From an uncultured Gammaproteobacteria bacterium (GTDB lineage Bacteria; Patescibacteriota; Microgenomatia; UBA10105; UBA927): a DNA stretch of 64,000 nt. A program made the position numbers and the translations under genes. Under the pieces are notes generated by a model. The model was not told where the DNA came from and made no database searches. It saw nothing but the letters and a program-made list of their open reading frames with translations. Positions within the stretch are counted from its first letter, which is position 1; every line of letters starts with the position of its first letter. The stretch is taken from NCBI GenBank assembly GCA_964621305.1, contig CAZUOM010000001.1, forward strand, positions 165,448 to 229,447. The letters run 5' to 3'. This document shows positions 1 through 58,110 of the stretch, one piece after another.

Positions 1-111
1 AGCTTACGCCAGAAATTATTGTTCAACTCGAAGGAAAAAATCCAGTCAACTGGCTTCAACTTTCCAAAGCTAATCTTGAAACAAATTGAGGTATTGACAG
101 ACAGCAAATAA
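1..111 (+). CDS. 3-prime end of an ORF that enters from the left window edge; product unknown
   Basis: Frame 1 is open from nt 1 to TAA at 109-111 (SLRQKLLFNSKEKIQSTGFNFPKLILKQIEVLTDSK*). No start is visible, and no recognisable motif. Confidence 0.2.
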   Translation, partial: SLRQKLLFNSKEKIQSTGFNFPKLILKQIEVLTDSK

Positions 112-123
112 TTATTTACGCTG

Positions 124-429
124 GTGGTGGGTGTTGGTATGGCGAGAAAAAAAATTTCTTCAACAGGATCATTTCGATCAAAAGATATTGCTTCTTGGAA
201 CTTTATTATTTTCCTGACGCTTGCATTTATTTTGCTTGTGGTAGTATTGACTGCTATGCGCGGAGTTTCACTTGATCTACGAAGTAAAGCCGGCCTTTCT
301 TGCCCTCAATTAAGTCTGCCCCGTGCCGAGGACTGTGCCGGCGGCTGGACGTACAAGCGCGACACCAAGGGCTGCCTTGCCTTCTTTTGCGAAGTGAAAG
401 CAACTCCTACAACAAAATCTTCAAAATAA
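124..429 (+). CDS. hypothetical small membrane protein (one TM helix)
   Basis: 101-aa ORF with a hydrophobic stretch NFIIFLTLAFILLVVVLTA. No recognisable family. Confidence 0.3.
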   Translation: MVGVGMARKKISSTGSFRSKDIASWNFIIFLTLAFILLVVVLTAMRGVSLDLRSKAGLSCPQLSLPRAEDCAGGWTYKRDTKGCLAFFCEVKATPTTKSSK

Positions 430-741
430 CTATTTCTCTGGCGCAGCCGGAGGGGGCTGAGGTACTGGTAGCGCTTCTGTTGGTTTTTCAGTAGGCACGT
501 CTGCAGCAGGTGTATCCTTGGAATCAGGAGTTGCTAATTCACTAAGTGCACCACGTGCCTTCCCACGAGCAAGAACAAATACGTCTGTTCCGTCTGTAAA
601 ATTCTTAGGGTGAATACCTTGAAAATATGGATGGAGGGGGTTTCTCCGCTGAATCTCTCTGGCCAGATCAACACTAATCTTCCTTACACGAAACTTAAAA
701 TCTCCATATAAAGTATTTAGATTAATATTAGATTTTTCCAT
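430..741 (-). CDS. hypothetical protein with a Pro/Ala-rich C-terminal tail
   Basis: 103-aa ORF downstream of the Tat-secreted protein gene in the same orientation. No family recognised. Confidence 0.35.
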   Translation of the reverse strand: MEKSNINLNTLYGDFKFRVRKISVDLAREIQRRNPLHPYFQGIHPKNFTDGTDVFVLARGKARGALSELATPDSKDTPAADVPTEKPTEALPVPQPPPAAPEK

Positions 742-763
742 AATGTTATTAATGTTGTTTTAA

Positions 764-1774
764 TTATACACTTGATTGGACAACTTGTCTGCGATTGCGA
801 AAAGCAACCAACGCCGAAACAAATAAAGCAATAGCGCCCGCAGTTGGGCCTAACCAACTCAGGTCTCCATCTGGTATTTGTACGGCCTTGCTCCCAGGAT
901 ACTCAACGGCGGCGGGATTTACTTTAGGCACTTCTTGTGGTTGGGTGCGTGGAGACTGACCATTTGGACCGTTGCAGGGCCCATGCAGCCTGTTATACAC
1001 TTCTTCTTGTGCTTCTTTTAGTTCTACGCCTGATATCTTTCTTGCGCTCTTTGCAATATGTATTTGTTCGTTCATTGGTTTCACCAGCGCTGTCCCAGGA
1101 GATGAGGCGTCTGGGTTGGATATAAATAGAAATTTTTTCACCTCGCCATTTCTCATAGTCACATTTCCTGTAAACTGGTAGGACCTAGCAGAAACCAATT
1201 TCTTTGTTTTTGGATCATAAAACGACCCAGAATACACATCCTCAATCTCCACCTTGAGCCCTGTCTTGGCATTTGACAATGATGATTGAGCCGGAAATTG
1301 ATTTGCAACCAGTGCAGTGACAATCTCGCGAATTAAAAGGTTTGCCAGTGGTGCGCAGTGATATGTCTTTTTATCATTCCTTGAACGAGCTAGAACATGA
1401 TTTGTGATTTCATTTAGCATTGTAGACGTCATTGTCTGGAGTGATTGGCTGGTAAGCATCATAATTTGTACATCACCTGAATTTTTTTGGAAATCGAAGG
1501 ATTGACCATACGCGAGTTTTTCTTCTGGTGTTAAATCTGCAAACTTAGCCACGCCTACCTCACCACGAATTGCCTGTTGAATGCGATCGGCAAGCGCACT
1601 ATCTGCCATGAGCTCACTTTCTGTTAGCTCTAGTGAGATGGTCGGGGTCGGTTGAGGTCCTTGAGCCTCAACTGATTTCGTCGATAATAAAGAAACACCA
1701 ACTAATCCACCGAAACCAGCTGCACCAAACTTAAGAACGTCACGACGGGATAGAATAGCTCTGTTTTCAAACAT
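764..1774 (-). CDS. Tat-signal secreted protein with a C-terminal LPXTG-like sorting or anchor signal
   Basis: N-terminus has the twin-arginine motif SRRDVLKFGAAGFGGLVGVSL...VEA. C-terminus is LSWLGPTAG + hydrophobic helix AIALFVSALVAF + basic RNRRQ, i.e. the sortase-substrate-like tripartite layout. Confidence 0.5.
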   Translation of the reverse strand: MFENRAILSRRDVLKFGAAGFGGLVGVSLLSTKSVEAQGPQPTPTISLELTESELMADSALADRIQQAIRGEVGVAKFADLTPEEKLAYGQSFDFQKNSGDVQIMMLTSQSLQTMTSTMLNEITNHVLARSRNDKKTYHCAPLANLLIREIVTALVANQFPAQSSLSNAKTGLKVEIEDVYSGSFYDPKTKKLVSARSYQFTGNVTMRNGEVKKFLFISNPDASSPGTALVKPMNEQIHIAKSARKISGVELKEAQEEVYNRLHGPCNGPNGQSPRTQPQEVPKVNPAAVEYPGSKAVQIPDGDLSWLGPTAGAIALFVSALVAFRNRRQVVQSSV

Positions 1775-1834
1775 GATAACGAGAGAATATCACAAAATAC
1801 GCTAATTGTCAACTACTATAAGATATAGTAGCTA

Positions 1835-2068
1835 CTAGAAGACGGCTTTGCGCAGGTCGAAGCGGACGCGCTTGATACACGAGGTGCAGGCACGCACGCG
1901 CTTGAGGACCCCGTCAAACGGCAGGCTCACCCAGTGAAGGTTGGGCTTAAATCTGCGGATGGTCGTCTGTGCCCGCTTTTTCCACTGCCCGCCGGCAACT
2001 CCAGTGTGATGGGTGTGAGAGCGACCCATGTGACTTTTTTTATTGCATATTTCGCATCTTGCAGCCAT
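1835..2068 (-). CDS. rpmB: 50S ribosomal protein L28
   Basis: 77 aa, MAARCEICNKKSHMGRSHTHH...RRFKPNLHWVSLP. Matches the L28 signature (C-x-I-C-x-K, SH, RrF-PNL). Confidence 0.8.
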   Translation of the reverse strand: MAARCEICNKKSHMGRSHTHHTGVAGGQWKKRAQTTIRRFKPNLHWVSLPFDGVLKRVRACTSCIKRVRFDLRKAVF

Positions 2069-2079
2069 AATAAAAAGAA

Positions 2080-2155
2080 GCTTAGCGTGCTTAGCAAGAC
2101 CAGTAGCTTAGAAGTTTCTAAGCCACCAATCTACTAAGCATCTAAGCTACTAAGC
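2080..2155. repeat. hexamer inverted-repeat cluster: 3x GCTTAG followed by 4x CTAAGC (empty IVS-like stem site)
   Basis: GCTTAG at 2080, 2089 and 2106. CTAAGC at 2118, 2134, 2142 and 2150. The central GCTTAGAAGtTTCTAAGC is a near-perfect palindrome. The same hexamer arrays flank the four-helix-bundle gene at 10381-10823. Confidence 0.6.
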
Positions 2156-2194
2156 TTCTAAACTTCTCCTCAATCACGTATACTATACCACAGC

Positions 2195-2800
2195 ATGACT
2201 GATCTTGTCTATTGGTTCGGATCGCTCATAATAGCCATCACTATCCACGAATTTGCCCATGCGGTGGCGGCGGACCGGCTTGGAGACCCCACCCCCAGAC
2301 TCCAGGGGCGGATCACCCTTAACCCCCTCTCGCACCTGGACCCAGTGGGCACGATCATGCTCCTTCTGGTTCACTTCGGTTGGGGCAAACCCGTCCAGTT
2401 CGACCCGTTTAACCTGCGCCACCCCAGGCGGGACGCAGCCATCATCTCCCTTGCGGGGCCGGCGGCAAATTTAGTATTAGCGACGATCATCTCAATTCTT
2501 CTTCACTTTATAAACTTTATAAACATTACAAACTTTCTAACTACGCTGGTAGTTTTAAACGTCGTCCTTGCTGTTTTTAATCTCCTACCCCTTCATCCGC
2601 TCGACGGATTTAAAATCGTCGGCGGCATCTTACCGACAGAATATGCCAAAAGCTGGTACGAGCTGGAGCGCTACGGCATACTTTTTCTCCTGTTTCTCCT
2701 CTTCCCAATCTTTGGAAGTACTGCACCAATTACAAAAATCGTCACACCGGTTATCAGTCTCGTACTGGGTATCCTTCTACCCCGCGCACCAGTTATCTAA
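2195..2800 (+). CDS. site-2 protease family (peptidase M50) integral membrane metalloprotease
   Basis: HEFAHA (HExxH) in the first TM segment, downstream LLPLHPLDGFKIVGG (LDG motif), and a multi-pass hydrophobic profile. Confidence 0.7.
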   Translation: MTDLVYWFGSLIIAITIHEFAHAVAADRLGDPTPRLQGRITLNPLSHLDPVGTIMLLLVHFGWGKPVQFDPFNLRHPRRDAAIISLAGPAANLVLATIISILLHFINFINITNFLTTLVVLNVVLAVFNLLPLHPLDGFKIVGGILPTEYAKSWYELERYGILFLLFLLFPIFGSTAPITKIVTPVISLVLGILLPRAPVI

Positions 2801-3049
2801 ACAAATTGCCCTTGACATATGTACTCGCCTTGCTCTACGATAGGAGTTGCCTGGTGTGGAGCTTTGAGGCGATTTTCCTCCACAAATTCAAAAACAATGA
2901 GGTAGTCTTGCTGAATTCCTCAGCGGGGCAACAGGACGATGTCTCCGAGCTCCTTGGAGTTTCGGAGCAGTCCCTCCGATATTTCTAGTCGGGGAAAATC
3001 TTCAAAGCCATCCAGGCCATGAAATTATTCTTCGCCAAATCTACAGACT

Positions 3050-3078
3050 TTGTCGTTTTCCCATCTACCTATTATAAT
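3050..3078 (+). promoter_or_regulatory. sigma70-like promoter upstream of the tRNA-Thr locus
   Basis: TTGTCG (3050-3055), 17-nt spacer, then TATAAT (3073-3078), about 35 nt before the first tRNA exon. Confidence 0.4.
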
Positions 3079-3114
3079 GTGACTAGGTGCTTGAGCGGGG
3101 TCCCGTAACATTAT

Positions 3115-3348
3115 GCCGCCTTGGCTCAGTGGTAGAGCGAGTGTTTTGTCCCAGCACTATCTTGCCCCGCCGAGCGGGGCGTAGAAGTGCGGGATCCCAT
3201 ACTTTTAAGCTGGCGTAGCTCAATGGCAGAGCAACTGTTTTGTAAACAGTAGGTTGGGAGTTCGATCCTCCCCGTCAGCTCAAAATAACCGCCAGCAAAA
3301 AGTACTGGGATAAACACTAGGTCGTCGGTCCGATCCCGACAGGCGGCT
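3115..3348 (+). tRNA. split or interrupted tRNA-Thr(UGU)-like gene: 5-prime half 3115-3149, 3-prime half 3312-3348, with a 162-nt insert in the anticodon loop that contains a complete tRNA-Thr
   Basis: 5-prime half: GCCGCCT-TG-GCTC-AGTGGTA-GAGC-G-AGTGT-TTTGT. 3-prime half: AA-ACACT-AGGTC-GTCGG-TCCGATC-CCGAC-AGGCGGC-T. Acceptor, anticodon and T stems all pair perfectly, and the rejoined loop is TTTGTAA. The insert 3150-3311 ends in 9-bp inverted repeats CCCAGCACT / AGTACTGGG. Confidence 0.45.
3209..3280 (+). tRNA. tRNA-Thr (anticodon UGU)
   Basis: Manual cloverleaf: acceptor GCTGGCG/CGTCAGC (one GU), D arm GCTC-AATGGCA-GAGC, anticodon arm ACTGT-TTTGTAA-ACAGT, T arm GGGAG-TTCGATC-CTCCC. No encoded CCA. 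Confidence 0.85.
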
Positions 3349-3641
3349 CAAAACGAAAGGCTTCTGAAGACGTTTTCCACTTCTATCATGGTTTTTTTGT
3401 TTCCCTTGTAAAACATCCGCGCACCGATCTGATACCTAGTGACAAATCCCACTTTTATGAGCTCTTTAAGGTGATGGGCAAGGAGGCTTTGCGAACATGG
3501 CATATGGATAGCAAGCTCTTTGAGCCTCATGTCACTTTGTGACAAAAGGTGCAAAATAGCAATCCGATGCGGGTGAGCTATGGCATGCAGGATGCCAGCC
3601 TCTTTGGCAGATCGCACAATTAGTTTCTTGCCGGCAAGCAT
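3348..3641 (-). CDS. ArsR/SmtB-family HTH transcriptional regulator
   Basis: 97 aa; winged-helix region HPHRIAILHLLSQSDMRLKELAIHMPCSQSLLAHHLKELIKVGFV typical of ArsR. Confidence 0.65.
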   Translation of the reverse strand: MLAGKKLIVRSAKEAGILHAIAHPHRIAILHLLSQSDMRLKELAIHMPCSQSLLAHHLKELIKVGFVTRYQIGARMFYKGNKKTMIEVENVFRSLSF

Positions 3642-3667
3642 AGGAACCTATTATAATTGATCCCAAT

Positions 3668-3752
3668 GCCGAGGTGGCAGAGCAGTCAAATGCACCAGTC
3701 TGTAAAACTGGTGGCCGAAAGGCCTACCTAGGTGCGAATCCTAGCCTCGGCA
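3668..3752 (+). tRNA. tRNA-Tyr (anticodon GUA), class II with a long variable arm
   Basis: Acceptor GCCGAGG/CCTCGGC, anticodon arm CCAGT-CTGTAAA-ACTGG, variable hairpin GGCC-GAAA-GGCC, T arm CTAGG-TGCGAAT-CCTAG. A TATAAT box sits at 3652-3657 upstream. Confidence 0.85.
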
Positions 3753-3805
3753 CAGAGCACCTAAATACCCTCTTGCATCGAAGAGACAAGGTTGTCTATA
3801 CTTAG

Positions 3806-4321
3806 ATGATGGCAGATCAAGCTTCACAAGCAAGTGAGCAGGAAGAAAACATGGACGGATCGATGATGTATTATATCATCGGTGGACTCGTGGTTGTAGC
3901 GATAGCTGCGGGCGTATGGTTTCTGCGGCCGCAAGGCGGTACAGCCCTGACCGGTTTTGGCACTCCTCTTCTCCCCACTCCTACACCTGGTCCTATCACA
4001 GCCCTTTCCTGCGAAAAACAATATTACAACCCGGTCGTCGGTTTCACCGACTACTATATAGGTCTTGACGGAGTCGACGTTCCGGCAACCAAAAGTGTCA
4101 TCTGCGAATTTACGATATCTATGGGTGGTACAATCCTTTCCACCGAAAGCGCAAAGGCATCATTTGTCGCAGCACCTGAAAGGAATGGTCAAGTATTTAC
4201 GTGCCGGACTAAAAAACTTAGCCTCACACCAGAACTTAATACGGATGTAACCGTCAAAATCACCAATGACTTGGGACTTACAAACACGTGCTCAACGACA
4301 TACGTCCTCCCAAAGCCATAA
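3806..4321 (+). CDS. hypothetical membrane-anchored extracytoplasmic protein
   Basis: 171 aa with an acidic N-terminus, then TM helix YYIIGGLVVVAIAAGVWFL, then a Cys-containing soluble domain. Confidence 0.45.
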   Translation: MMADQASQASEQEENMDGSMMYYIIGGLVVVAIAAGVWFLRPQGGTALTGFGTPLLPTPTPGPITALSCEKQYYNPVVGFTDYYIGLDGVDVPATKSVICEFTISMGGTILSTESAKASFVAAPERNGQVFTCRTKKLSLTPELNTDVTVKITNDLGLTNTCSTTYVLPKP

Positions 4322-4368
4322 ACGCTAGCCCACCTCCTTCCAGTTAGCCATGATATAATTGGTTTTAT

Positions 4369-4440
4369 GCCGTCGTAGTTCAGTGGTAGAACGTCTTCTT
4401 GGTAAGAAGAAGGTCATGGGTCCAATTCCCATCGACGGCT
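4369..4440 (+). tRNA. tRNA-Thr (anticodon GGU)
   Basis: Acceptor GCCGTCG/CGACGGC, D arm GTTC-AGTGGTA-GAAC, anticodon arm TCTTC-TTGGTAA-GAAGA, T arm ATGGG-TCCAATT-CCCAT. TATAAT at 4354-4359. Confidence 0.85.
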
Positions 4441-4565
4441 CCGTGAATCTAATATCTCTTTTTTCTACCGCTGTATTTGCCGCTGAAGTCGTTCTTTCAC
4501 CCGTACCCGATGAATTGGCCGGTTATATATATCCAGGCTTTCATCAGCCGAGTGTTAGCTTTGGT

Positions 4566-5315
4566 ATGCTTGCCCAACCGACATTGCCTGAAGTTGTCGA
4601 AATCACCACCGAAACCATACCCTCACTAGCCCCTGTCGTATCTCCTAGAAAGGCGAGAAAAGATGCCTTCACTATAGCCGTCATCGGCGACTCAATGGTC
4701 GATACCCTTGGCCCGGACATAGGGGGACTGCCGAAAAAACTTCAACAAACATACCCGGGAGTATTTTTTGACGTACGAAACTACGGCGTGGGAGCCACCA
4801 ATATCGACTACGGCATCAGCCGCCTCACTAACGACTACGAATACTTGGGCGTCGGTAAACCTTCTGTAGTCAGCCAAAATCCGGATATCGTAGTTATCGA
4901 ATCATTCGGCTACAACCCCTACCCATTCGACGAAGGCGCCCTTGATAAACATTGGCTCGCGCTCTCACAAATGGTTGATATCATAAAAGCAAATCTCCCC
5001 GAGGCAAAAATAGTGATAGCCGCAACGATTGCTCCCAATTGGGACGTATTTGGTGACGGCGTTCTTGGTTGGGATTCTAGCGGCAAGAGGAGAAAAGTCG
5101 AAGAAATCAAGAGATACATCGAAAATACAGTCGGCTTTGCCAAAAGCCAGAATCTGCCACTGGCCGACGTCTATCACCCAAGCCTAGACGACACCGGCAA
5201 CGGGAAGCTCGCCTATATAAATCCCGGCGACCACATCCACTACTCAGATGCCGGACGGGAGCTATTTTCAAAAAAGGTATTTGAGGCACTCGAGAGACAC
5301 AAGCTACTAGAGTGA
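4566..5315 (+). CDS. SGNH/GDSL-family hydrolase (lipase or esterase-like); start uncertain
   Basis: Block I motif FTIAVIGDSMVDTLG. The ORF-track start 4359 overlaps the tRNA-Thr(GGU) gene, so the first ATG after the tRNA (4566) or a nearby non-ATG start is more plausible. Confidence 0.6.
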   Translation: MLAQPTLPEVVEITTETIPSLAPVVSPRKARKDAFTIAVIGDSMVDTLGPDIGGLPKKLQQTYPGVFFDVRNYGVGATNIDYGISRLTNDYEYLGVGKPSVVSQNPDIVVIESFGYNPYPFDEGALDKHWLALSQMVDIIKANLPEAKIVIAATIAPNWDVFGDGVLGWDSSGKRRKVEEIKRYIENTVGFAKSQNLPLADVYHPSLDDTGNGKLAYINPGDHIHYSDAGRELFSKKVFEALERHKLLE

Positions 5316-6368
5316 ACGGTCGTTTAACAATTTACTCGTACCCCTGGCATCACGAATAAAATCTGGCAAGTGTGCCTTACCGGTCACCGGACTTTTCGGG
5401 AGAAATGCTTCGTATCGATCCATCAAGGTTACTATTTGGTCCGGGCAACTCTGCATCATACGAAAAATTTCATCTTGGATCGCTTTATAAAAACTGTTTG
5501 CCTCCTGTAATCGAGTACGCAAATGATCAGGGACAGGAGCATTTCTTTTTTTCAAAGCCTCAATTTGTCCTTCCTCTTCATTGGTCAGCGAAACTGCGGC
5601 ATAAATCATAGAATATAAATCTAGCACGGCTATGTTTTCGTCTTCTCTCCTAATGGGAGACGCAGGATCAACATCGATAATATTAGCTATCGGTACGCCC
5701 GCTGATAAAGAATAGCGATTTTTTTTTCGCAATACCCGCTGCCCGAGGCTTGTGATGACGTTCCAATCAGTCTCTGGGTGAAGTAGCGAGATGCGCCGTT
5801 CATCCTCCATCTTATCTAAAAAATCAACGACCTGCCCAAATAGTACCTGTGCGGAGCTGAGTTCATCATAACTATTGGAATTTACACAAACATCGTTGAT
5901 CACATCGAGGGCTTGTTGGATCCTCGACTTGTTGGGGTTTGCTTTATGCAAGTAATATAGTCGGGCTCGCAAAACCTCTCCGTCATTAGTCCAGCGGTCC
6001 AACATATCTTTAAAATACTCCTCCACATCAGGATGTATGTTTTCCAACCCAGGTACTCTAACACTATCAGCATTTAGTTGACGATTTCTTTGACTGAACA
6101 GATATGGATTATTCTCAACTGCATACCGCGCAGAGTCCAGGATTGCTGGTAATGATCCAGATTCGACTACGTATCGGATTCTGACCTTGTCATTATTGGT
6201 CATCCCCACACCGCTTTGGCATCCCATAACAACCGGTACCAACACTCTAGTAGCTATAGCCTCAGTAGACAATTGATTGTTAGAAAGTAAAATCGCAAGA
6301 TCAGCAACCGACGGATCGACTGACTTAGGGTGAGAAATATCAATTGCACTATTATGTTCTTTTGCCAT
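5307..6368 (-). CDS. hypothetical protein (353 aa)
   Basis: Long ORF with no recognisable motif; divergent from the 6444-8498 gene. Confidence 0.5.
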   Translation of the reverse strand: MAKEHNSAIDISHPKSVDPSVADLAILLSNNQLSTEAIATRVLVPVVMGCQSGVGMTNNDKVRIRYVVESGSLPAILDSARYAVENNPYLFSQRNRQLNADSVRVPGLENIHPDVEEYFKDMLDRWTNDGEVLRARLYYLHKANPNKSRIQQALDVINDVCVNSNSYDELSSAQVLFGQVVDFLDKMEDERRISLLHPETDWNVITSLGQRVLRKKNRYSLSAGVPIANIIDVDPASPIRREDENIAVLDLYSMIYAAVSLTNEEEGQIEALKKRNAPVPDHLRTRLQEANSFYKAIQDEIFRMMQSCPDQIVTLMDRYEAFLPKSPVTGKAHLPDFIRDARGTSKLLNDRSL

Positions 6369-6443
6369 AAAGCGTGAAATAACAGAACAAATACCGTATA
6401 CTTACACTTCTTGGCTCAATAATATATCTTAAAAAAAAGGCCT

Positions 6444-8498
6444 ATGTCAAATATAGAATCTCCTTCGCAACCATATGAGCTTGATGCCGTATCAGCTGTT
6501 TTTGACCGTTTTGTTGAGCAGCTCAATCTGTCTGATATTAAAACTCGGCCAGACCGACCGCAAGTACTCTCCCGCTGTTTTCGAATATTTTCCGACGCAC
6601 TCTCCCGAGGCATATCGCCCTTATCTATAAAGCTATCCACTAACGGCCTGATAATACCTACTATAGCAAAAAACAACGAAACGTGCCAGATACGCTACAG
6701 AGGGGATCCGCAGACAATATTACAGTGGGAACTTATTCCAGCCAAAAGAAATCCATCTACATCGGAAATATTTTTTTTTCAGCGTAGGATGGAGGAGGCA
6801 CAAGAGCCGATAAACGGTGAAAAGTGGTTTGCCCAGGTTCCAGACCTTATACAGGCAGCATTAGTCTTAGGTCAATCGATACAAATGGCCCAGGTCCAAA
6901 AATCAAATGAGTCACGTCGACGAATAGAACATGCATTGGCAACAGCTGGTTTTCTGGTTCGTCATGTGCCAGAAGTCAAGGAGCGCTTTGATATGTTTTC
7001 CAAAGATTTCCAAACATTTAAAAAGGATATTATCGGTTCCCAACTTGCTCTGTGCGAACGGCACCTCGATGATGCCTCATACGCACCAAGGCTTTTGGCC
7101 CTACAAAATGATGCCGAAGCACTAGTACGACTTCGCACACATCTATTTCGTAATGGAAAAAGAGCCATCGGCGACCATGATCGACCAAAATATGAGCATG
7201 CGCTGGCTATAGAATATATCATCAAACCAAAATCACTGGCGGACCCTAGCCATTTGATGTATCCAGAAACATCGATAGAAAAAATCATGACTGTCTACAA
7301 TTTTTTTATCTCGCTACGAAAACATATTGAGGACAGAGGCTACGCTTTCGGCCAGCTACGACATCAGCCTGATATTGAGGCACCCGTTGGCGCTGCATTT
7401 GAAGCTATCGGCATTCCCAGACACATCGGCCTTAGCTATTGCGGCAGCATCTGTGGGCAGCTCATCGACGACGTTCTTACTGATCCAAAGATTTTTCCAG
7501 ACCCCACTGCGACCATTGATAAAACACTACTTTCACAAAACGATTCGTTGCGTATCGATCTTAGTAGACAATTTTTACTCGAAAGAGCATCGCCGGCAAG
7601 TAAACCAGTAGTTGAGTCACACATGGCAAACGAGATGGCTATAAAGATAGAGTATCTGAATCTCGCACAGGCTAAACGTCTACCAAACACATCCCTTCTG
7701 GAAGCCGATCCGACCACCCGCAAGCAGATCTTTAGCCGGTTATTTGTTCAAGAAAATTCGGTTGAGGCAAAGAAGACATCGCTGCGGCTTGTTCGTTGGC
7801 TATCGCTTGTGTATAACTCACGAACACATTCTTTTACTCGCTCAGAAAAGACACAAAAAGAGTTGTCCCCAAGAGAAAAAGCCATCGCCCACGACTTTCT
7901 CTCTACGTGTATTAGCCTAACCAGATGGAAAAATACTTACGTCAAATCACTCTTTGACCAGCTCATTATAGAGTCGCAGCTGGCGGCATTCGTCGACGAA
8001 GTCTTTGGCAAAGGCACGCGCCGAGACCAGGCGGAAAGACAGTTTAAAAGTGAAATCATAAACGTCGTAACTGATGCAGAACTGGATGGCCTCATGACGG
8101 TCCACCGCAAGCTAAGCCCCAACCCAAAAAGTATAGAGGGTTACAATAAGATTGCCACCATGGCGGTGGCACTAGCGCTTTGGAATCTTTCAGATACGCT
8201 AGAGGCCGATCGCGAAACCATCATCGACACCCAGGCCATGGAAGGGGTTACGCTCTCTGCAGGCCAGATCGTATCTGCTCAACTGATAGCCCATGGCAGA
8301 AGTATGGAAAAAACTAAACAAAGCAATTTAGCAAGCGCAGTAGCAGATCTACTCTACCGGGGATCAATCGAAAAACGCATCCCTCCCATCGTCAAAGAGT
8401 TTGTTGGAGAAGCACTCAATAGCCTCTACCATCGCGACCGGTCAGCGTACGGTCAGCTTCATGAAAGTCTCGAAAAAACCATCAGGTCATTTTCGTAA
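6444..8498 (+). CDS. hypothetical protein (684 aa), predicted soluble and alpha-rich
   Basis: Long uninterrupted ORF. AAAAAAAAGG lies 6-15 nt upstream of the ATG. No family recognised. Confidence 0.5.
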   Translation: MSNIESPSQPYELDAVSAVFDRFVEQLNLSDIKTRPDRPQVLSRCFRIFSDALSRGISPLSIKLSTNGLIIPTIAKNNETCQIRYRGDPQTILQWELIPAKRNPSTSEIFFFQRRMEEAQEPINGEKWFAQVPDLIQAALVLGQSIQMAQVQKSNESRRRIEHALATAGFLVRHVPEVKERFDMFSKDFQTFKKDIIGSQLALCERHLDDASYAPRLLALQNDAEALVRLRTHLFRNGKRAIGDHDRPKYEHALAIEYIIKPKSLADPSHLMYPETSIEKIMTVYNFFISLRKHIEDRGYAFGQLRHQPDIEAPVGAAFEAIGIPRHIGLSYCGSICGQLIDDVLTDPKIFPDPTATIDKTLLSQNDSLRIDLSRQFLLERASPASKPVVESHMANEMAIKIEYLNLAQAKRLPNTSLLEADPTTRKQIFSRLFVQENSVEAKKTSLRLVRWLSLVYNSRTHSFTRSEKTQKELSPREKAIAHDFLSTCISLTRWKNTYVKSLFDQLIIESQLAAFVDEVFGKGTRRDQAERQFKSEIINVVTDAELDGLMTVHRKLSPNPKSIEGYNKIATMAVALALWNLSDTLEADRETIIDTQAMEGVTLSAGQIVSAQLIAHGRSMEKTKQSNLASAVADLLYRGSIEKRIPPIVKEFVGEALNSLYHRDRSAYGQLHESLEKTIRSFS

Positions 8499-8864
8499 AC
8501 TTGTATCGAATACGATAGGAGAAATCAACAACAGGCACGGATGCCAGACGATTCAAGAGCTCGGCTCCGCGGTACGTAAGCGTTTTGAGAGCTTTGCTTT
8601 CAACTAAATTAAAAAGATCTGCCTGCAAGAGATGGCCAGTTGAAGAGCGAACATAGGGAACGTCTTCAAATTCGTAAAGGGCGACGTCGTCCAGATTCCT
8701 GTTGTCTTTCTCAAAGTATCGGAACCTAAGGTAGTGTTTAACGATGTTGGCCGGACAAAATGCCTCCATAACAGAACCACCACTGGGTACTTTTTTTCAA
8801 TAACCAAGAGGGTAAAAGAGTCTCACGGGAAAATTGAATCGACTCAACAAGCTCAAGGGGTAAA

Positions 8865-8900
8865 TGCTCGATCTGAGCAACTTTTTTTATTTATTTTATT
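8865..8900 (+). terminator. possible rho-independent terminator (short stem plus a long T-rich tract)
   Basis: TGCTC-gatct-GAGCA followed by ACTTTTTTTATTTATTTTATT. Confidence 0.3.
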
Positions 8901-9028
8901 GCGTCTTTGTGAACGATATATACTCCATCAATACGGCGCACCGATGCAACAGGCGGGTCAACGTGTGATGGAGCAATATCCCAACTTCGTATATCCGACT
9001 CTTTGGTTTCCAACAAGGTCATAATGTA

Positions 9029-9982
9029 TTACCGTATTGTGTACACCGGAATTTCTAATAAGCGCTCCATAATGGCATTCTCCCCTACAAACTGTTTTGA
9101 GGGAATCTCTTTTCGTTGAATCTTTTCTACAAGCGCCTGGGTGGACAACTCTGGGATGTCTTCGCATTCAAAAAGTATCGTCTGTTCTGGAGCTTCTTGG
9201 GGAAACACCACCAGTCCGCGACGGAGGAATGGATCGGCCTGGCGTGGAACTAGAAAATCACTGACAACCCTCTCACCAGTCGGTTTCATATCATAAATAG
9301 GCTTAAACCCCCGAAACCAAAGATAGTGGAGGAAGGGGCTGTCTGGATAGACGAGAATGCGTCTGGGTTTCTTTTCTGAATAATCAACAGCAACCTGAGG
9401 CGTCCGTTTTGTCACACTACTAAGCTTAATTGCCTCCACAGCCGACAATGGGATAGTCAGTGGCATGCGGCTACGATGGAGAACAAGCGCCAAAAGCACC
9501 CCTTTTCCTCTCCGGTAGGGAAAAAGTTCCGTTGGTGCCAGAGAGACAGAGCGATATGGGACATCTTCAGCTCCCAAATCGTACCCCCGCATAAACTCCC
9601 CATAGGGAAGAGGGAGGATAAAAAGTGACGGTTTTTCCATCCCAAGCGCTGCTACTAAAGCATGGTATTGCTTGAGTCGATTGAGAGTCATTTTGATACG
9701 AATGTTAGGGTTATTCTTCAAGAATAAAAGGCCTGATCGGTCGATAAAAACTTCTACGGAAGAAACCAAATTGGGAAAAAGGGTGATTGCCGAAGCCAAG
9801 ATATCGTTTGCCTTCACAACATGGGAATTTCGGGAGTATTCATCCGGATTCGTCCGGGCCTGTTCGATCGCAGCGTTGAGCACTCCATTGAGGCCAGCGA
9901 TTCCATCGGATGCAACAATCTTTAGATATTCTCCATCATGGATCAATCTCTGGTAGAATCGATACAGATCAATCGTGATCAT
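9029..9982 (-). CDS. hypothetical protein (317 aa)
   Basis: ORF convergent with the 6444-8498 gene. The frame stays open upstream to 10207 but holds no alternative start. No motif recognised. Confidence 0.5.
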   Translation of the reverse strand: MITIDLYRFYQRLIHDGEYLKIVASDGIAGLNGVLNAAIEQARTNPDEYSRNSHVVKANDILASAITLFPNLVSSVEVFIDRSGLLFLKNNPNIRIKMTLNRLKQYHALVAALGMEKPSLFILPLPYGEFMRGYDLGAEDVPYRSVSLAPTELFPYRRGKGVLLALVLHRSRMPLTIPLSAVEAIKLSSVTKRTPQVAVDYSEKKPRRILVYPDSPFLHYLWFRGFKPIYDMKPTGERVVSDFLVPRQADPFLRRGLVVFPQEAPEQTILFECEDIPELSTQALVEKIQRKEIPSKQFVGENAIMERLLEIPVYTIR

Positions 9983-10206
9983 GGTATCGGAATCAAGCCC
10001 AATGGCGACCTCACCTTTCTCTATGCGTAAAGGGTCGATAGGACCACCATGGCCATAAGCACGACGAAAAAGCGCCCATCGCAGCTGATAGGCTTTGATC
10101 GAAGAACTAATCGCCGAATCACCGGCTTCTGTTAGAGAAGGAATTTCGCCCAGAGGGTGAATTATACCACTTGGCGAAAGCAGCGTAAATCTATTATAAT
10201 ACCTCC

Positions 10207-10380
10207 ATGGCTACCAAATCACAACGCGAACTCTTTGCCCTCGTTTGTTCTGTCTGCAAACGTCAGAATTATGTGAAGAAGAAAAACAAGCTGAATACGC
10301 CAGATAAACTCCTCCTGAAAAAGTATTGCGCGGGATGCAAAAAACACACGGAACACCGAGAATCCAACAAGCTGGATTAA
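10207..10380 (+). CDS. rpmG: 50S ribosomal protein L33 (zinc-ribbon type), 57 aa, absent from the ORF track
   Basis: MATKSQRELFALVCSVCKRQNYVKKKNKLNTPDKLLLKKYCAGCKKHTEHRESNKLD. This is the C-x2-C ... C-x2-C layout with KNKxNTPxKLxLKKYC and KHTxHRE, characteristic of L33. Confidence 0.8.
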   Translation: MATKSQRELFALVCSVCKRQNYVKKKNKLNTPDKLLLKKYCAGCKKHTEHRESNKLD

Positions 10381-10823
10381 AAGAGGCTTAGAAGCTTAGT
10401 TATTTAGAAGCTTAGAGCTTATGACTTCTTTCAATTTCGAAGGGCTTACGGTCTATCAACGCTCCTTGGTATTCTCACAAAGAATTTTTGAAATATCCCG
10501 GGATTGGCCGAAAGAATACCTCTTTGGGTTAACGGATCAATTACGGCGTGCGTCATTATCCATTCCTTTAAATATTGCTGAGGGAAGCAGTAGGACAAAA
10601 AAAGATTTTAGACATTTTTTGATTATTTCTCGAGGGTCTTGTTTTGAATCCATTCCTCTGATAAAACTGGCACATTCTTTAAAACTCCTTACTTCAATCG
10701 AGGAACAAACTTTGTATAATGAACTGAACGAGATAGCTCGTATGCTTAGTGGTCTTCGGTCATCTCTCGGGAGTATCTAACCAAGCTACTAAGCATCTCT
10801 AAGCCACTAAGCATCTTTTAACC
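10381..10823 (+). mobile_element. IVS-like cassette: four-helix-bundle gene bracketed by 3x GCTTAG (5-prime) and 3x CTAAGC (3-prime) inverted hexamer arrays
   Basis: GCTTAG at 10386, 10394 and 10411, immediately after the rpmG stop. CTAAGC at 10789, 10799 and 10807, immediately after the ORF stop. The arrays are mutually complementary and could form a long-range stem enclosing the ORF. An empty version of the same repeat sits at 2080-2155. Confidence 0.5.
10421..10780 (+). CDS. four-helix bundle protein (23S rRNA intervening-sequence protein family)
   Basis: 119 aa, YQRSLVFSQRIFEISRDWPKEYLFGLTDQLRRASLSIPLNIAEGSSRTKKDFRHFLIISRGSCFES. Matches the conserved core of IVS-encoded four-helix-bundle proteins (GLTSQLRRAAVSIPSNIAEG...F..FL.IARGS..E). 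Confidence 0.75.
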   Translation: MTSFNFEGLTVYQRSLVFSQRIFEISRDWPKEYLFGLTDQLRRASLSIPLNIAEGSSRTKKDFRHFLIISRGSCFESIPLIKLAHSLKLLTSIEEQTLYNELNEIARMLSGLRSSLGSI

Positions 10824-11339
10824 ATGCATCGCAATACCTACCTGCTCCTGATACTGCTTACGATCTTTGCCGCAATCGTGGCCGGTGTGAATATTGCCAA
10901 ACCGCAATCGGGTGAACCAAACCAAATAAATCTCCCAGAGACCGCCCAGCCCACACCGACTCCCCGACCGACCGTGTATAACTTAGGCAGCTGCGGCATA
11001 TCACTGATCGTGCCACCAAACTATACTACCATCGACGGTCCGGAAAGTACCGTGGTCTTAACCGGACCATCTGCCGGCGACACCATCATCGTCACCTGCC
11101 AAAAAAATATCCCGCGTCCCCCACTGCCAGCGGCGAAAATCGAACGGCTCGTCTTTGACATTGCCGAGCCGCCCGGTGCAAGTATTACCGCCACTCTCTA
11201 CCACGACGTTTCTTCCCGTGACGCGACGCCGGTCGACAAGTTAATATTTAGAAACCCCAAAAACGGCCTGGATATCTTCGTCTCCGGCACTGGGGAAGGC
11301 TTCCAATCCCTCATCAGAAACCTGAGCATCCTCCAATAA
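10824..11339 (+). CDS. hypothetical membrane-anchored secreted protein
   Basis: 171 aa; N-terminal signal or anchor LLLILLTIFAAIVAGVNIA, then a Pro/Thr-rich linker. Confidence 0.45.
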   Translation: MHRNTYLLLILLTIFAAIVAGVNIAKPQSGEPNQINLPETAQPTPTPRPTVYNLGSCGISLIVPPNYTTIDGPESTVVLTGPSAGDTIIVTCQKNIPRPPLPAAKIERLVFDIAEPPGASITATLYHDVSSRDATPVDKLIFRNPKNGLDIFVSGTGEGFQSLIRNLSILQ

Positions 11340-11486
11340 TTACATCAAATACTCATCAATGATATAATTATGAAGTTAGGGCTGTGATGAAATGGTATCA
11401 TGGCGCTCTCCAAAAGCGCTCTTCCCCGTCCGAGTCGGGGCAGCCCTGCAAAATTACTACAAAAACTCAGGTTGCACCTAATTTTT

Positions 11487-24100: not shown

Positions 24101-27100
24101 GATTTACTATGCCAAAACTTAGAGATTCGACTAATGTGATAATTGATTTGATTTCACGTACGACAGATATGTTCTCCTCCATGATTCTTTTCGACCTATC
24201 TTTTTTTTCATTCGCAAAGCGCTTTGATAATCGGCGTTCTAGCTCGTCTATTTCGTTTAGCGTTAGTTGAGTCAATTCGTCATCGTGTAAGGAACGGCTT
24301 GTTGCAAGCTGGACCAAAGGATCAAGTTTTGGGTTGATTCTGTATTCAGTACGTACAGTCGTATTGTGGGCCACAATACCGTTGGCGACGAAATTGTGGG
24401 TGCCTTCTACTTCGATATCAAAGACCTCTTTGCGGCCAACTTTTTCTATCGACACAACCGTGTCGTAAAACGCATGGCCTGCTCCGGCGACGGCTATCCT
24501 GTCTCCTACCCGAAGCTGGGAAACCCTGCACCATTGACCGCCCTTGACATGGTCCATGCGATTTGATAAGATGTATACGGTTTCTTCACCCCGCGCAAGC
24601 GGGGCTTTTTTGCCTCCTTTGTCAAGCCATACGCGTAATTTTTCGATAAACAGATGGGGAATTTTTCGGATTTCCCACGCGGCGTTTTGTTCAAAACACA
24701 TCATGGTGAAATTCTTTCCTTGCGATTTAATCTGTTTAGCTAGATTCACAAAATCGCTGTCTCCGCTTACTACCACAACATCCGTAACACTTGCCAGATA
24801 TGACTGGATATCCCAGGCCATCTCTACGTCAAAATTACATTTGTAGATGAAAGCGCCAGTTTTGGGATTGGTAATAATTTTCTTGAGCGGCTTTGTGACG
24901 ACGCGATATCCTTCGGTAGCGCGATCGGAAATGTAGGAGGCGGCCTGCGTTTTCAGTTTCCCCTCGGGCGTGCCAACGTAATAGCCCGCATAGACAATGT
25001 CGCCACTTGCGGAAAGAAGCCGTAAGAACTTTTTCCATGATACTCTCCAGCCTGCACGGCGCTGTGCATAAAATACATTTGCATCGTCAATGAAGACTGC
25101 AATTTTGCGCTTAACCGATGGCCTGCTTGTTTCCCTATAATACGGGTGAGTGCTCGTTGTCTCAATTTTACGGCCCAAAAGCGTAGAGAGTTTATATACA
25201 TCCTGCATCCCCTTTACCAGCAATTTGTTTACATAAGCAGGAACGAGGCAACCGGACCGCTCGTCCAATGTCAAAATTTCATCGCCCTCCTCGATCTCGT
25301 CGATCCGAACATCTTCCCAGCCTTCATCAAGACTATGGCCGGCAAGCCAGTCCTCATCAAGTCCTCCAACATTTCGGAGCATACCGCAAACCATCATTGA
25401 CAGAAGTCCCAATGTCGCCGTATCATCACCATCAGTGCCACATCTTGTATTTATCGCCAACCCATTCCGACTCTCCCCTGACCAGCTCCGATCGCTCTCA
25501 GGAATCTGCCAGGACATTGGCCAAGTTCTGTTCGCCGGATTCGTAGTGGCGCCCATTGCGGCCAAGGGTGCGGATGCAGCATTCCTTACATTGGGGTTGA
25601 CATCCTCCGTCGCCTTTTGGTACATTGAACTGGTCATTGTCAGGAAACTCGAAGTATGAATGTCGCCCAAATAAATACGATCTACCTCGTCTATATTCTG
25701 GCTGCACTGCTTGCTATCTTTTTCCTGCTGGCAGTTTATTTCTCGTTTAAGGATATCGACAGCAGGCGGGGTCATTCCTCCAAAACCTCTTCCCGATAAA
25801 ACGACATCGCCAAATCCGAAGGATTCGGCAATACTTCCAATTATGGCAATAACTCGACGAAGCAGAGACCACTGCGTTAAAAGGTCACGTGTTTTCCAAT
25901 CTCCGTCCCCTCCTCCTATTTTTACTTTTTGATCTTTGATTTTTGATTTTCTCCGCCGTCGGCGCAGAATAGTGTCCCCCGTCACGCACTCGGGCAGCCG
26001 GGCTTCCGGCACCGCGCCAGCCGGTGTTCGTGGCGTTACTGGTCTTGCTTGTTCTGCTTGTCTTGCTTGTTCTGCCACCTCGCCGGGGGCAAGCGGGATT
26101 TGTTGCTGGCCCGGTTTGAGAGCGAGCGGTTCGGCCGGCAAAACTTCATGAGCGATCTGCCGAGCAAGCTTCTCGACGCGCTGATCATACTTGCTATTCC
26201 AAACCGCTTCACCAAGGATGGCTATCTCCTCTTTGAGCGCATCTTGAATTGCTGCTTTTACAAAACCCACAGCGTAAGGAAAAGGATATCTCTTTGCATT
26301 TTGAGCTACTTCCTTCCACTCTCCGTAATAAAGGAAATTACCTTTGTCCGAAAGAACTCGTTCGATGTGCTGTTCCGCTTGAGAAATTGAGGCTTGTTGT
26401 TTACTAACAACAATTTCGTAAATCTGCTGTGCCCTCTCCCGTGCTGCCTCCTGTACCCGAGCCCGCTCGTCGGCCGTCAGTTTCGCGATTTTGTCAGCTA
26501 CGTCTTTTGACGTGAGTATTGCCCCCCGAATTGAATTCACGACCTCATTTTTATCAGATGTTTTTTTCAGTGCATTTTCCCCAACCTTTTTCCACTCATC
26601 ATTCAACCCAATATTGTCACCGCGTATCAGATCAAGGACTTCATTGAGTTTTCGGACCTGCTCCAAGCGCGTCCGAAGTTCGTTGATGCCATTTTGAATG
26701 CTCGCAAGATCCGCCTGATTCACGATTGGAACTGCGATGCCTAGTTCTTTTGCTTGATCGGAAAGATCATTGAATACTTTAACCGCGCGATCAGTATCTG
26801 ACTGTGCTTTTTCTGCTGGTTGGGCTGTAATTGATTCCGGCCCAGTAGGTGTGTCTGTGGTTGGGGTCACCGGTTCAAATAGGGCCTCGGGGAAAAGGGC
26901 CGGGTGGCCGGAACCGCCGCGACCGGCTAGGTTCCCCCAATAAACCAAACCACTCCCTAAAAGCTTAAACCAACTGTAATTAGCGACAATATACTTGAGT
27001 TGGGTGTGATTGGTTATGGGAATCTTGGTTCCCTCAATGGGATCGGCTTTCCCTAACCCCTGGGCTTGCGCAATCACATCCTCACCTCTATTGAGTACGG

Positions 27101-56843: not shown

Positions 56844-58110
56844 AGGCTTGACCTCCTATATCGCGCCGGTATTGCATTCCTTCAAAACGCACGCCACCGG
56901 ACCCAATTACCCCGTATGCACGCCGGATGGCGGCTTCGATCGTTTCTCCGTATGCCGTCACTCCCAGAACTCTCCCGGCGCTTGTAACGACGCCGCGATC
57001 GTTCAGGAGCGTCCCTGCGTGAAACATCCGGATATTCGGATCACGCACGGTATCCAATCCCTCAATGAGCACTCCTTTTGCGCAAGGCCCGGGGTAGCCG
57101 GCGCAGGCCAGTACCACACAGACGCTAGCCCCCGGGCGAAACCGTACCATCTCCGGCTCGAGGGTCCCGTTCATACATGCAAGAAGAATAGGCGCAAGGT
57201 CAGATTTCAAAAGCAACATGAGGGGTTGCGTTTCCGGGTCGCCGAAGCGCGCGTTGTACTCAAGCACCTTCGGCCCCTGCGCTGTGAGCATAAGGCCCGC
57301 GTAGAGCACTCCTTTATACGGATAACCTTCTTTACGCATGCCCTCAACCGTCGGCTGTAGGATGGTCCGGTGAATCTCTCTGATATCAATATCGGCAACC
57401 GGAGCATACGCGCCCATGCCGCCGGTGTTGGGGCCGCGATCCCCGTCGCCAATACGCTTGTAATCCCGTGCCGGCAAAAGCGGCACGGCGCTTTTGCCGT
57501 CGCAAAACGCCAATACCGATAGCTCCGGACCGGTGAGCCGTTCCTGAATGACGATGGTGCGGCCGGCACCGCCAAAGGACCTACCCGAAAGCATTTCCCG
57601 CACCGCAGCTTCTGCCTCCTCCAGCCCATCCGGAAGGATAACTCCCTTTCCTGCTGCCAACCCATCTGCTTTGACAACCATCTTTCCCCAGGGGAAACGG
57701 CGAACAAAACGGATCGCCTCTTGCTCATCGAGAAAAACCCAGGAGCGTGGGTGCGCAATACCGTGCCGCGCCATAAAACCCGCTGCCCACGCCTTGCTCG
57801 ATTCCAGCTTCGCTGCGGCTGCCGTCGGTCCGAATATTGGCAGTCCCCGGGCTTGAAACTCATCGACTATACCCATCGCAAGCGGCGCCTCCGGCCCAAC
57901 GACCGTGAGATCCAACCTCAATTTATCTGCTAATTCGCTAAGTCCGGCGATATCTTCAGCCGGTATTGGAATATTTTCTCCAATTTCCGCCGTCCCCGCG
58001 TTTCCCGGCGCAAAATAAAGTCTTCCTGACTTGCCAAGTTTCCACCCCAACGCGTGCTCCCGACCGCCGGAGCCAACGATCAAAACCTTTTTTTGTTTTG
58101 GCATCAGCAT
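56833..58110 (-). CDS. purD: phosphoribosylamine-glycine ligase (GAR synthetase)
   Basis: 425 aa; KVLIVGSGGREHALGWKL N-terminus and ATP-grasp core. Confidence 0.85.
   Translation of the reverse strand: MLMPKQKKVLIVGSGGREHALGWKLGKSGRLYFAPGNAGTAEIGENIPIPAEDIAGLSELADKLRLDLTVVGPEAPLAMGIVDEFQARGLPIFGPTAAAAKLESSKAWAAGFMARHGIAHPRSWVFLDEQEAIRFVRRFPWGKMVVKADGLAAGKGVILPDGLEEAEAAVREMLSGRSFGGAGRTIVIQERLTGPELSVLAFCDGKSAVPLLPARDYKRIGDGDRGPNTGGMGAYAPVADIDIREIHRTILQPTVEGMRKEGYPYKGVLYAGLMLTAQGPKVLEYNARFGDPETQPLMLLLKSDLAPILLACMNGTLEPEMVRFRPGASVCVVLACAGYPGPCAKGVLIEGLDTVRDPNIRMFHAGTLLNDRGVVTSAGRVLGVTAYGETIEAAIRRAYGVIGSGGVRFEGMQYRRDIGGQAYGT

Follow-up and report, generated by a model that had tools for sequence, protein, structure and literature searches.

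A four-helix-bundle gene bounded by complementary GCTTAG arrays downstream of rpmG, and a repeat-bounded layout across the PF05635 family

Introduction

Open reading frames (ORFs) of the four-helix-bundle family PF05635 are carried in the loops of the 23S rRNA intervening sequences (IVSs) of the Leptospira, Coxiella burnetii (S23p), Brucella and Xanthomonas type. A gene of this family is found at a different kind of site in the 64,000-nt stretch of DNA analyzed here (hereafter, the window), which covers positions 165,448 to 229,447 of contig CAZUOM010000001.1 (assembly GCA_964621305.1). The gene follows rpmG, and it is enclosed by copies of GCTTAG upstream and of the complementary CTAAGC downstream. 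What kind of element is this, and what are its arrays for?

To our knowledge, the PF05635-type family is very large, and its function is known only in diversity-generating retroelements. We also know of no accepted explanation for the heptamer arrays of Xanthomonas, Nostoc and Beggiatoaceae, which are compared with the cassette below. For 30 years, rRNA IVSs have been described as possible remnants of transposition, with no mobile unit defined. Family genes have been noted between cas genes (PMC3936711) and in 16S and 23S rRNA insertions of Candidate Phyla Radiation (CPR) bacteria (bioRxiv 10.1101/2024.02.27.582315).

A previous reading of the locus from its letters alone (the sequence-only reading) suggested a mobile, processing-prone cassette of IVS-like architecture, or an RNase III site co-opted for regulation downstream of a ribosomal protein gene. 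We followed up this proposal computationally in the window, in orthologous loci and in a survey of the family.

Results

The gene and its two arms

The four-helix-bundle ORF occupies 10421-10780 of the plus strand and encodes 119 aa. The product matched PF05635 (23S_rRNA_IVP) with E=2.8e-31 and 108.3 bits (cutoff 33.8), over profile positions 2-106 of 106, and TIGR02436 with E=9.4e-31 and 106.3 bits (cutoff 24). These scores, well above the cutoffs, agree with the identity given by the sequence-only reading. Among proteins of solved structure, XCC0516 of Xanthomonas campestris (PDB 2GSC, E=1.7e-13) is the nearest, and by similarity to it the window protein is predicted to be a pentameric four-helix bundle. 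The family motif has been published as GxxRxxxSxxxNxxE (PMC3936711). In an alignment of 35 sequences, the portion RxxxSxxxNxxE(G) was present, with R43, S47, N51, E54 and G55 invariant, and the leading G was replaced by Q40 in the window protein.

The protein shares its fold and superfamily with Avd of the diversity-generating retroelements, a basic pentamer that contacts nucleic acid jointly with a reverse transcriptase. The matches to the Avd profiles were weak (bAvd, PF22296, 19.9 bits against a cutoff of 40; NF033474, 21.2 against 80), and an identity as Avd was rejected. No reverse transcriptase domain was detected among the scanned neighbors; template and variable repeats were not searched for.

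The 5′ arm (10371-10420, plus strand) contains three GCTTAG copies, at 10386-10391, 10394-10399 and 10410-10415, with spacings of 8 and 16. The last copy stands 5 nt ahead of the ORF. The 3′ arm (10781-10828, plus strand) begins 1 nt past the stop codon, contains three CTAAGC copies, at 10789-10794, 10799-10804 and 10807-10812, and extends into the ATG of the next gene. Thus, the three upstream and three downstream copies described in the sequence-only reading are exact, and they bracket the ORF from 10386-10415 and 10789-10812. The upstream neighbor is rpmG, encoding ribosomal protein L33 (10207-10380, plus strand; PF00471, E=1.8e-17). The downstream neighbor, gene X (10824-11339, plus strand; 171 aa), has an N-terminal hydrophobic anchor and is the conserved right-hand neighbor of rpmG in the clade. 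Gene X had no family match in the profile search, and the named proteins most similar to it are annotated as Candidatus Gottesmanbacteria, a CPR lineage. No rRNA was detected in the window with Rfam. Therefore, the placement of the ORF beside rpmG and outside rRNA, also described previously, was confirmed.

GCTTAG is not enriched across the window (22 matches, 24.8 expected); 13 of the 22 matches are concentrated in two clusters. Ubiquitous arrays would have spoken against an association with the gene, and the arrays proved to be rare in the window. The cluster at the cassette encloses the family gene, and the cluster at 2080-2155, which had been overlooked, is gene-less. When any hexamer was considered, a cluster of at least three copies within 40 nt, followed by a reverse-complement cluster of at least three copies no more than 600 nt downstream, was seen a single time in the window and never in 200 first-order Markov simulations.

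The minimum free energy fold of 10370-10830 pairs both arms (-123.8 kcal/mol, z=-3.65). The base of this predicted long-range stem is made of the final rpmG codons and the rpmG stop codon. The arm-arm duplex energy is -38 to -45 kcal/mol, and the single arms, folded alone, showed no structure beyond chance (z about 0). Neither the cassette nor the second cluster matched an Rfam family; the gathering-threshold matches in the window are three tRNAs only. Searches with PADLOC for defense systems and with PHROGs for phage proteins gave zero matches.

The cassette is an insertion between rpmG and gene X

Orthologues were obtained by exact-protein look-ups of the closest homologues (66-74% identity). 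A metagenome scan with the single protein found nothing closer than 61% identity. The gene order (GDSL lipase, rpmG, four-helix-bundle gene, gene X) was constant in all look-ups. Seven distinct loci are occupied, namely the window (W), L003, L163, L166, L169, L170 and L173, and GCTTAG-type arrays were found on both sides of the cassette in all seven. Their copy number is variable; L169 has seven units upstream and three downstream. Drift has turned the units of L173 into the heptamers GATTAGA and GTTTAGA.

More distant relatives, reached through gene X, have an empty site. In L174, the rpmG stop codon TAA is followed by 10 nt and then by ATGCATCGCAATACCTACCTGCTC, 24 bases identical to the start of X in the window. 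In L175, only cgt stands between the TAA of rpmG and the ATG of X, so that the two genes are 3 nt apart. In L176, rpmG reaches within 10 nt of the called X start, and no four-helix-bundle gene is present. Arrays are absent from the rpmG-X junctions of all three. The cassette is thus sporadically present at a conserved site. The 443 nt from the rpmG stop codon to the ATG of X (10381-10823, plus strand) correspond to 3-10 nt in the relatives, whose short spacers contain neither arrays nor gene. By this comparison, the cassette was inserted, together with both arrays, into what had been a very short rpmG-X spacer. A free-standing GIY-YIG gene was also observed just 3′ of X in L164 (3340-3669) and L176 (3254-3541), as a sporadic small gene at that place.

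The ORF is intact in all seven orthologues, with dN/dS values of 0.13-0.22 where dS could be computed. On these values, it is under purifying selection. Although every orthologue pair is saturated at synonymous sites, the non-coding arms have retained the GCTTAG or TTAGA core. Among the seven orthologues, cognate arms pair at -34.1 kcal/mol, as compared with -25.8 kcal/mol for non-cognate arms, and 3 of 5040 permutations reach the observed sum. By this permutation test at the level of arms, the two arms co-evolve.

The repeat-bounded layout is general in the family

We surveyed 160 further loci with family members from genomes and metagenomes of many phyla, in which 164 genes were located by profile. 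For the 161 genes with usable flanks, the 70 nt on the upstream side were compared with the 70 nt on the downstream side, as they were in the controls, which comprised 484 random 360-nt segments and 600 further ORFs of the same loci. Five locus pairs are duplicates, and their removal changes the result immaterially. The mean flank duplex energy was -34.3 kcal/mol for the family, -24.4 kcal/mol for the random segments (p about 1e-12) and -23.7 kcal/mol for the other ORFs (p about 1e-15). A hexamer repeated upstream with its complement repeated downstream was detected in 29.8% of the family genes, 0.8% of the random segments and 0.3% of the other ORFs. At least three shared inverted 7-mers were found in 56%, about 5% and 6.5%, respectively. 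Judging from these frequencies, the repeat-bounded layout is a general trait of the PF05635 family across many phyla, and the IVS-like architecture recognized by the sequence-only reading is real and not peculiar to this locus.

The units are lineage-specific (GGGTAGA, CTATGGA, ACTCCCA, CTCCGAA, GACAGA, GTTCAT and others). Their spacing is overwhelmingly 7 nt, 8 and 9 nt being minor classes. For the gene-adjacent arrays, the medians are 4.0 copies and 29 nt, and arrays of period 6-9 occur at 7.3 per kb at the ends of family genes, as against 0.40 per kb elsewhere in the same loci. The 3′ arm usually lies 0-3 nt from the stop codon, and the 5′ arm finishes 0-25 nt ahead of the start. The four-helix-bundle gene is co-oriented with 79% of its upstream and 76% of its downstream neighbors; these values have no control set and were not used as evidence.

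Two metagenome-assembled genomes (MAGs) of different lineages (L026 and L036) carry cassettes that are 88% identical over about 460 nt in unrelated flanks. The homology runs from the outer edge of the 5′ array to the outer edge of the 3′ array. Since its limits fall at the array edges, a transferable unit is defined. In L036, the 440-nt spacer at 9026-9466, between a gene for a branched-chain aminotransferase and one similar to 2-isopropylmalate synthase, is packed with arrays of several 7-8-nt units, and one of these, ACTACCG, matches the cassette arm 3 kb away.

We also compared cassette units with the other period-7/8 arrays of the same contig, counting as a match at most one mismatch, in any rotation and on either strand. 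Such matches made up 22.7% of the arrays, as compared with 4.1% when the units of another locus were used (null maximum 10.9% in 200 permutations). Exact matches were 11.8%, against 0.2% in the null. Six survey loci (L003, L004, L007, L010, L011 and L019) have CPR/Patescibacteria-like gene content and nearest relatives under third-party annotation titles reading 'uncultured Gammaproteobacteria', which is probably a labelling artefact.

Gene-less hairpins built of the same unit

The second cluster in the window is an ORF-less hairpin (2071-2172, minus strand), with GCTTAG at 2080, 2089 and 2106, CTAAGC at 2118, 2134, 2142 and 2150, and a 6-nt loop. The minus-strand fold of 2078-2163 has an energy of -51.3 kcal/mol (z=-7.3). 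The hairpin lies between a divergent gene for an M50-family protease and rpmB, encoding ribosomal protein L28 (1835-2068, minus strand; TIGR00009, E=1.1e-11, 45.0 bits, just under the 48.3-bit cutoff). It stands about 10 nt ahead of the rpmB ATG, and the 5′ leader of rpmB would contain it. No third GCTTAG-type cluster was found in the 64 kb, even with one mismatch per unit allowed.

Gene-less hairpins built of cassette units were also detected in the rpmG 5′ leader of L166, L169 and L173, and a degenerate one in L003. The sequence GCAAGACCAGTAGCTTAGA is common to the rpmB-leader hairpin of the window and the rpmG-leader hairpin of L166. Therefore, these two hairpins are homologous, though they lie at different loci. 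No leader hairpin was present in the cassette-free relatives L175 and L176.

Relation to rRNA intervening sequences

Family genes inside rRNA have the same layout. A metagenome contig (L137; Ga0265595_1001961, 1-10082) contains a complete rRNA operon with two family genes within 23S rRNA, and another locus (L130) contains one family gene within 16S rRNA; all of these are repeat-bounded. In L137, TTAGA-type heptamer arrays flank the spacer tRNAs and also stand between the 5S rRNA and tRNA genes. These arrays, built of one heptamer and found beside nearly every tRNA gene and the 5S gene, are mostly in direct orientation and have no complementary partner. A gene-less repeat insert was observed at 1860-2010 of the same contig, near the 3′ end of 16S rRNA.

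The IVS of Coxiella burnetii has a 28-bp stem of terminal inverted repeats, inside which RNase III cleaves, and three tandem heptamers GACAGAT ahead of the ORF, whose copy number varies among strains (PMC4990558). ORF-containing 23S IVSs thus resemble the window cassette in the protein family encoded in the loop, in the stem of terminal inverted repeats and, for Coxiella, in the tandem units before the start codon. They are expressed through read-through from the host gene, and ORF-less versions exist. The window cassette likewise has terminal inverted repeats and a sporadic presence; it differs in lying in an mRNA spacer after rpmG instead of rRNA, and its unit has a period of 8, not 7. The Coxiella ORF is decaying, whereas the window ORF is under purifying selection. 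Because the layout is shared within rRNA and the Coxiella features recur, the window cassette appears to be an ORF-containing-IVS-type element sited in an mRNA spacer instead of an rRNA helix.

Transcription of the locus

A promoter-like site, TTGGCG-18-TATAAT (10171-10200, plus strand; 10 of 12 matches), stands 6 nt ahead of the rpmG ATG. An rpmG transcript with little or no leader, extending through the cassette, is predicted from it. No terminator-like site was found on the plus strand after this promoter-like site before 11340. Therefore, rpmG, the cassette and gene X are probably carried on a single transcript, and the cassette would have no promoter of its own. A terminator role for the arrays was considered and rejected, since they have no run of T residues, and since both genes beside the solo hairpin are transcribed away from it.

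Motifs resembling the Shine-Dalgarno sequence were detected at 8 of the 34 window genes, and many genes have a TATAAT-like box 6-10 nt before the ATG (e.g., those at 3641, 10207, 2195, 39033 and 41585). These two features together suggest that leaderless mRNAs are widespread in this CPR genome.

Other features of the window

A single ORF of 8748 codons on the minus strand (12153-38399) carries an intein (PF14890) at 24360-25988. The intein holds an NYN-domain nuclease (PF01936) where a homing endonuclease usually sits, and its N-terminal CVTGDT motif and C-terminal VAHN|T junction are visible. ARAGORN called a tRNA-Trp at 11378-11449 and a 92-nt tRNA-Lys at 57421-57512, neither of which is found by Rfam at the gathering threshold. 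The tRNA-Lys call lies within a 425-codon ORF and may be false.

Discussion

The best explanation of the locus, to which we assign a probability of roughly 0.6, is an array-bounded IVS-type mobile cassette whose arms form an RNase III-type stem in the rpmG transcript. By this explanation, a PF05635 gene between two mutually complementary GCTTAG arrays of period 8 was inserted as a unit into the 3-10-nt rpmG-X spacer. The cassette would be transcribed from the rpmG promoter, and its arms would pair as an imperfect stem enclosing the ORF. RNase III may then cut the stem, by homology with the rRNA cases, and separate the rpmG, cassette and downstream messages. Such cuts would produce 5′ ends lying 5-11 nt away from two start codons, that of the cassette gene and that of X, and these ends would suit an organism reliant on leaderless starts. 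Processing at the stem would also explain how an insertion into so short a spacer is tolerated. The element is bounded by the arrays, which form its ends, and the ORF-less hairpins, in the rpmB leader here and in the rpmG leader of relatives, would be its gene-less relatives. Excision by RNase III has been demonstrated for the rRNA element (PMC4990558); for the window cassette, we infer the cleavage and its effect on translation by analogy. Intercistronic RNase III sites, such as those of the phage T7 early region, rpsO-pnp and the rRNA operon spacers, offer a further likeness, since a long imperfect stem would separate messages and set their ends. The window stem differs from them in that it encloses a whole gene and is made of tandem units, and its function is the inferred one.

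Several results weigh against this explanation. Strong arms were found in only about 40% of the family members. The stem is not significantly more stable in the sense strand family-wide (48 against 32, p=0.10), and in the window cassette the antisense stem is the more stable (-56.5 against -45.0), as it is for the leader hairpin of L166. RNAalifold on the seven orthologues gave 16 conserved pairs, which are mostly invariant, with four showing a double change and a covariation term of +1.1. This column-wise covariation is weak because the units hardly vary among orthologues, and the permutation test on whole arms was used in its place. Thus, the compensatory variation called for by the sequence-only reading is seen between arms but only weakly between columns. 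The persistence of the unit despite saturated synonymous sites, and the seven upstream against three downstream units of L169, are unexplained by pairing alone. Furthermore, the cassette in this clade is an old, vertically inherited resident, which does not speak for current mobility. The part of the earlier proposal that concerned mobility stands insofar as the cassette was inserted and two other MAGs share an 88%-identical cassette in unrelated flanks; a recent jump in this clade does not.

The conserved unit, the surplus units of L169, the direct-only arrays and the matching of units within genomes suggest a factor that reads the unit specifically, most obviously the encoded protein. The arrays could accordingly be putative binding sites of this protein, a predicted pentamer, with each subunit binding one 7-8-nt unit in RNA or in single-stranded DNA. 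Sites for the protein would then lie on both sides of its own gene, and the ORF-less arrays would be further targets for regulation, processing or propagation, as in REP/RAYT or TRAP-type systems. This possibility, which we regard as the most serious alternative though still a doubtful one, could hold alongside RNase III processing, with which it does not conflict. It accounts for the GCTTAG core kept across orthologues beyond synonymous saturation and for the extra unpaired units of L169. It also fits the homogenization of units per genome, since the cassette and leader hairpin of L173 are both of GATTAGA type and those of the window both of GCTTAG type, and the excess of same-contig matches, loose and exact. 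Paralogues in one contig have different units (L123 and L137), the typical array has about four copies, and direct arrays without a complementary partner flank the tRNAs of L137. In X. campestris, GGGAATC array no. 15 overlaps the start of XCC0516 (PMC4692102 table S2; PDB 2GSC), the closest solved relative. Against these points, the geometry of 7 nt per subunit is an estimate, not a result. Common descent or gene conversion would likewise lead to shared units within a genome, and simple protein binding does not require the arms to be complementary.

The lack of a clear sense-strand preference means that selection could act on DNA, and a purely DNA-level role of the arms is then conceivable. 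In that case the arrays would be terminal inverted repeats or hairpin ends, used in replication or by a recombinase or transposase acting in trans. The stem would form in RNA only incidentally, and the four-helix-bundle gene would be cargo or would encode an accessory factor. The clean insertion, the array-bounded transferable unit and the resemblance of the ORF-less copies to miniature derivatives agree with such a role, as does TTAA at both outer ends of the window cassette (10376-10379 and 10817-10820). However, TTAA is a palindrome within an inverted repeat, the orthologues show no consistent duplication at the cassette ends, and there is no clear target-site duplication. The profile search detected no associated transposase or recombinase in the window, and the position of the cassette has long been stable in the clade. 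Moreover, the rRNA-embedded members must be removed as RNA for a working ribosome, as those of Coxiella are (PMC4990558). We therefore consider an exclusively DNA-level role unlikely. Still far less probable is that the hairpins are autoregulatory leaders or attenuators to which L33 or L28 binds, and that the four-helix-bundle gene came by chance to lie within one of them. The hairpins of the clade do adjoin rpmG or rpmB, but the same architecture occurs in many phyla and contexts, including rRNA, cas operons (PMC3936711) and metabolic operons. There is no Rfam match, the cassette-free relatives have no leader hairpin, and the empty sites have no arrays. Finally, short tandem units are prone to replication slippage, and the copy number varies among orthologues, so that functionless products of chance or slippage were considered. 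None of the 200 simulations produced such a cluster pair, the excess over control genes is 40-100-fold, the arrays are conserved beyond synonymous-site saturation, and cognate arms co-evolve. These results make a functionless origin untenable.

The family-wide pattern can also be compared with other known repeats. In X. campestris, 186 GGGAATC arrays have been described, and an array of 4 units (28 nt) is typical. In seventy cases, two arrays converge, as in the groES-groEL, atpA-atpG and gltB-gltD spacers, and the loops between them measure 21-67 nt among the entries considered (PMC4692102). Array no. 15 lies at 622956-622983 of X. campestris ATCC 33913, and it is XCC0516 whose start codon it overlaps (PMC4692102 table S2). 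The main text of that paper contains none of 'S23', 'four helix' and 'intervening sequence', nor any comment on this overlap. TAACTGA arrays have been reported just ahead of start codons in Beggiatoaceae, cyanobacteria and Bacteroidetes (PMC4679880); neither that paper nor its supplement draws a link to the four-helix-bundle family. These genome-wide arrays, including GGGGA(C/T)T of Nostoc (PMC4692102), have 7-nt units in 2-6 copies, 4 being typical. They resemble the arrays described here in occurring as convergent pairs in highly expressed operon spacers (atp, groESL, glt) and in ending just before start codons. The papers treat them as G-quadruplex formers or regulatory sites of unknown role, and the four-helix-bundle family goes unmentioned in their main texts. 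The window differs in its 8-nt GCTTAG-type unit and in having only two clusters in 64 kb.

REP/RAYT systems (REPINs), formed by repetitive extragenic palindromes (REPs) and their associated tyrosine transposases (RAYTs), are similar in that a gene is flanked by inverted copies of a repeat scattered elsewhere as gene-less hairpins, that the hairpins prefer spacers inside operons, and that the repeat is genome-specific. Dispersal as gene-less hairpins in the same genome was likewise found in the window, L166, L169 and L173. However, RAYT is an HUH (Y1) tyrosine transposase, whereas the flanked gene here encodes a small PF05635 helical bundle with no known catalytic activity, and REPs are single imperfect palindromes of about 35 nt instead of arrays of 7-8-nt units.

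As a tentative extension, which we find possible but would not yet favor, PF05635 proteins may be the cognate partners of the 7-8-nt arrays in highly expressed operon spacers, each recognizing its own unit, one per subunit of the pentamer. This might hold, with the same reserve, for Xanthomonas, cyanobacteria, Beggiatoaceae, Bacteroidota, CPR bacteria and others. Equally tentatively, the gene-less arrays and hairpins might depend on the array-flanked gene, as on a master copy, or be its targets, in a REP/RAYT-like or TRAP-like manner.

The window element itself belongs to an established protein family, and its context is akin to that of known IVSs. What appears to be new is the family-wide repeat-bounded architecture, the defined transferable unit and the tie to the orphan heptamer arrays. 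We found no description of repeat arrays as a general feature of the family in the literature searched, whose coverage is incomplete, so that an earlier description elsewhere is possible. The window is a clear example, for which an empty site, seven orthologues and a related hairpin without a gene are all available. Two complementary arrays of a lineage-specific 7-8-nt unit accompany the gene, the layout occurs in both rRNA and mRNA spacers, and the unit recurs without the gene in the same genome. The survey thereby ties together three puzzles, namely the function of the family, the rRNA IVSs and the heptamer arrays. If PF05635 proteins are indeed cognate partners of the arrays, a very large orphan family would gain a function, and the origins of rRNA IVSs and of the bacterial heptamer repeats would be accounted for. 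The finding may also bear on how operon expression is interpreted in CPR bacteria, in which leaderless starts are apparently common.

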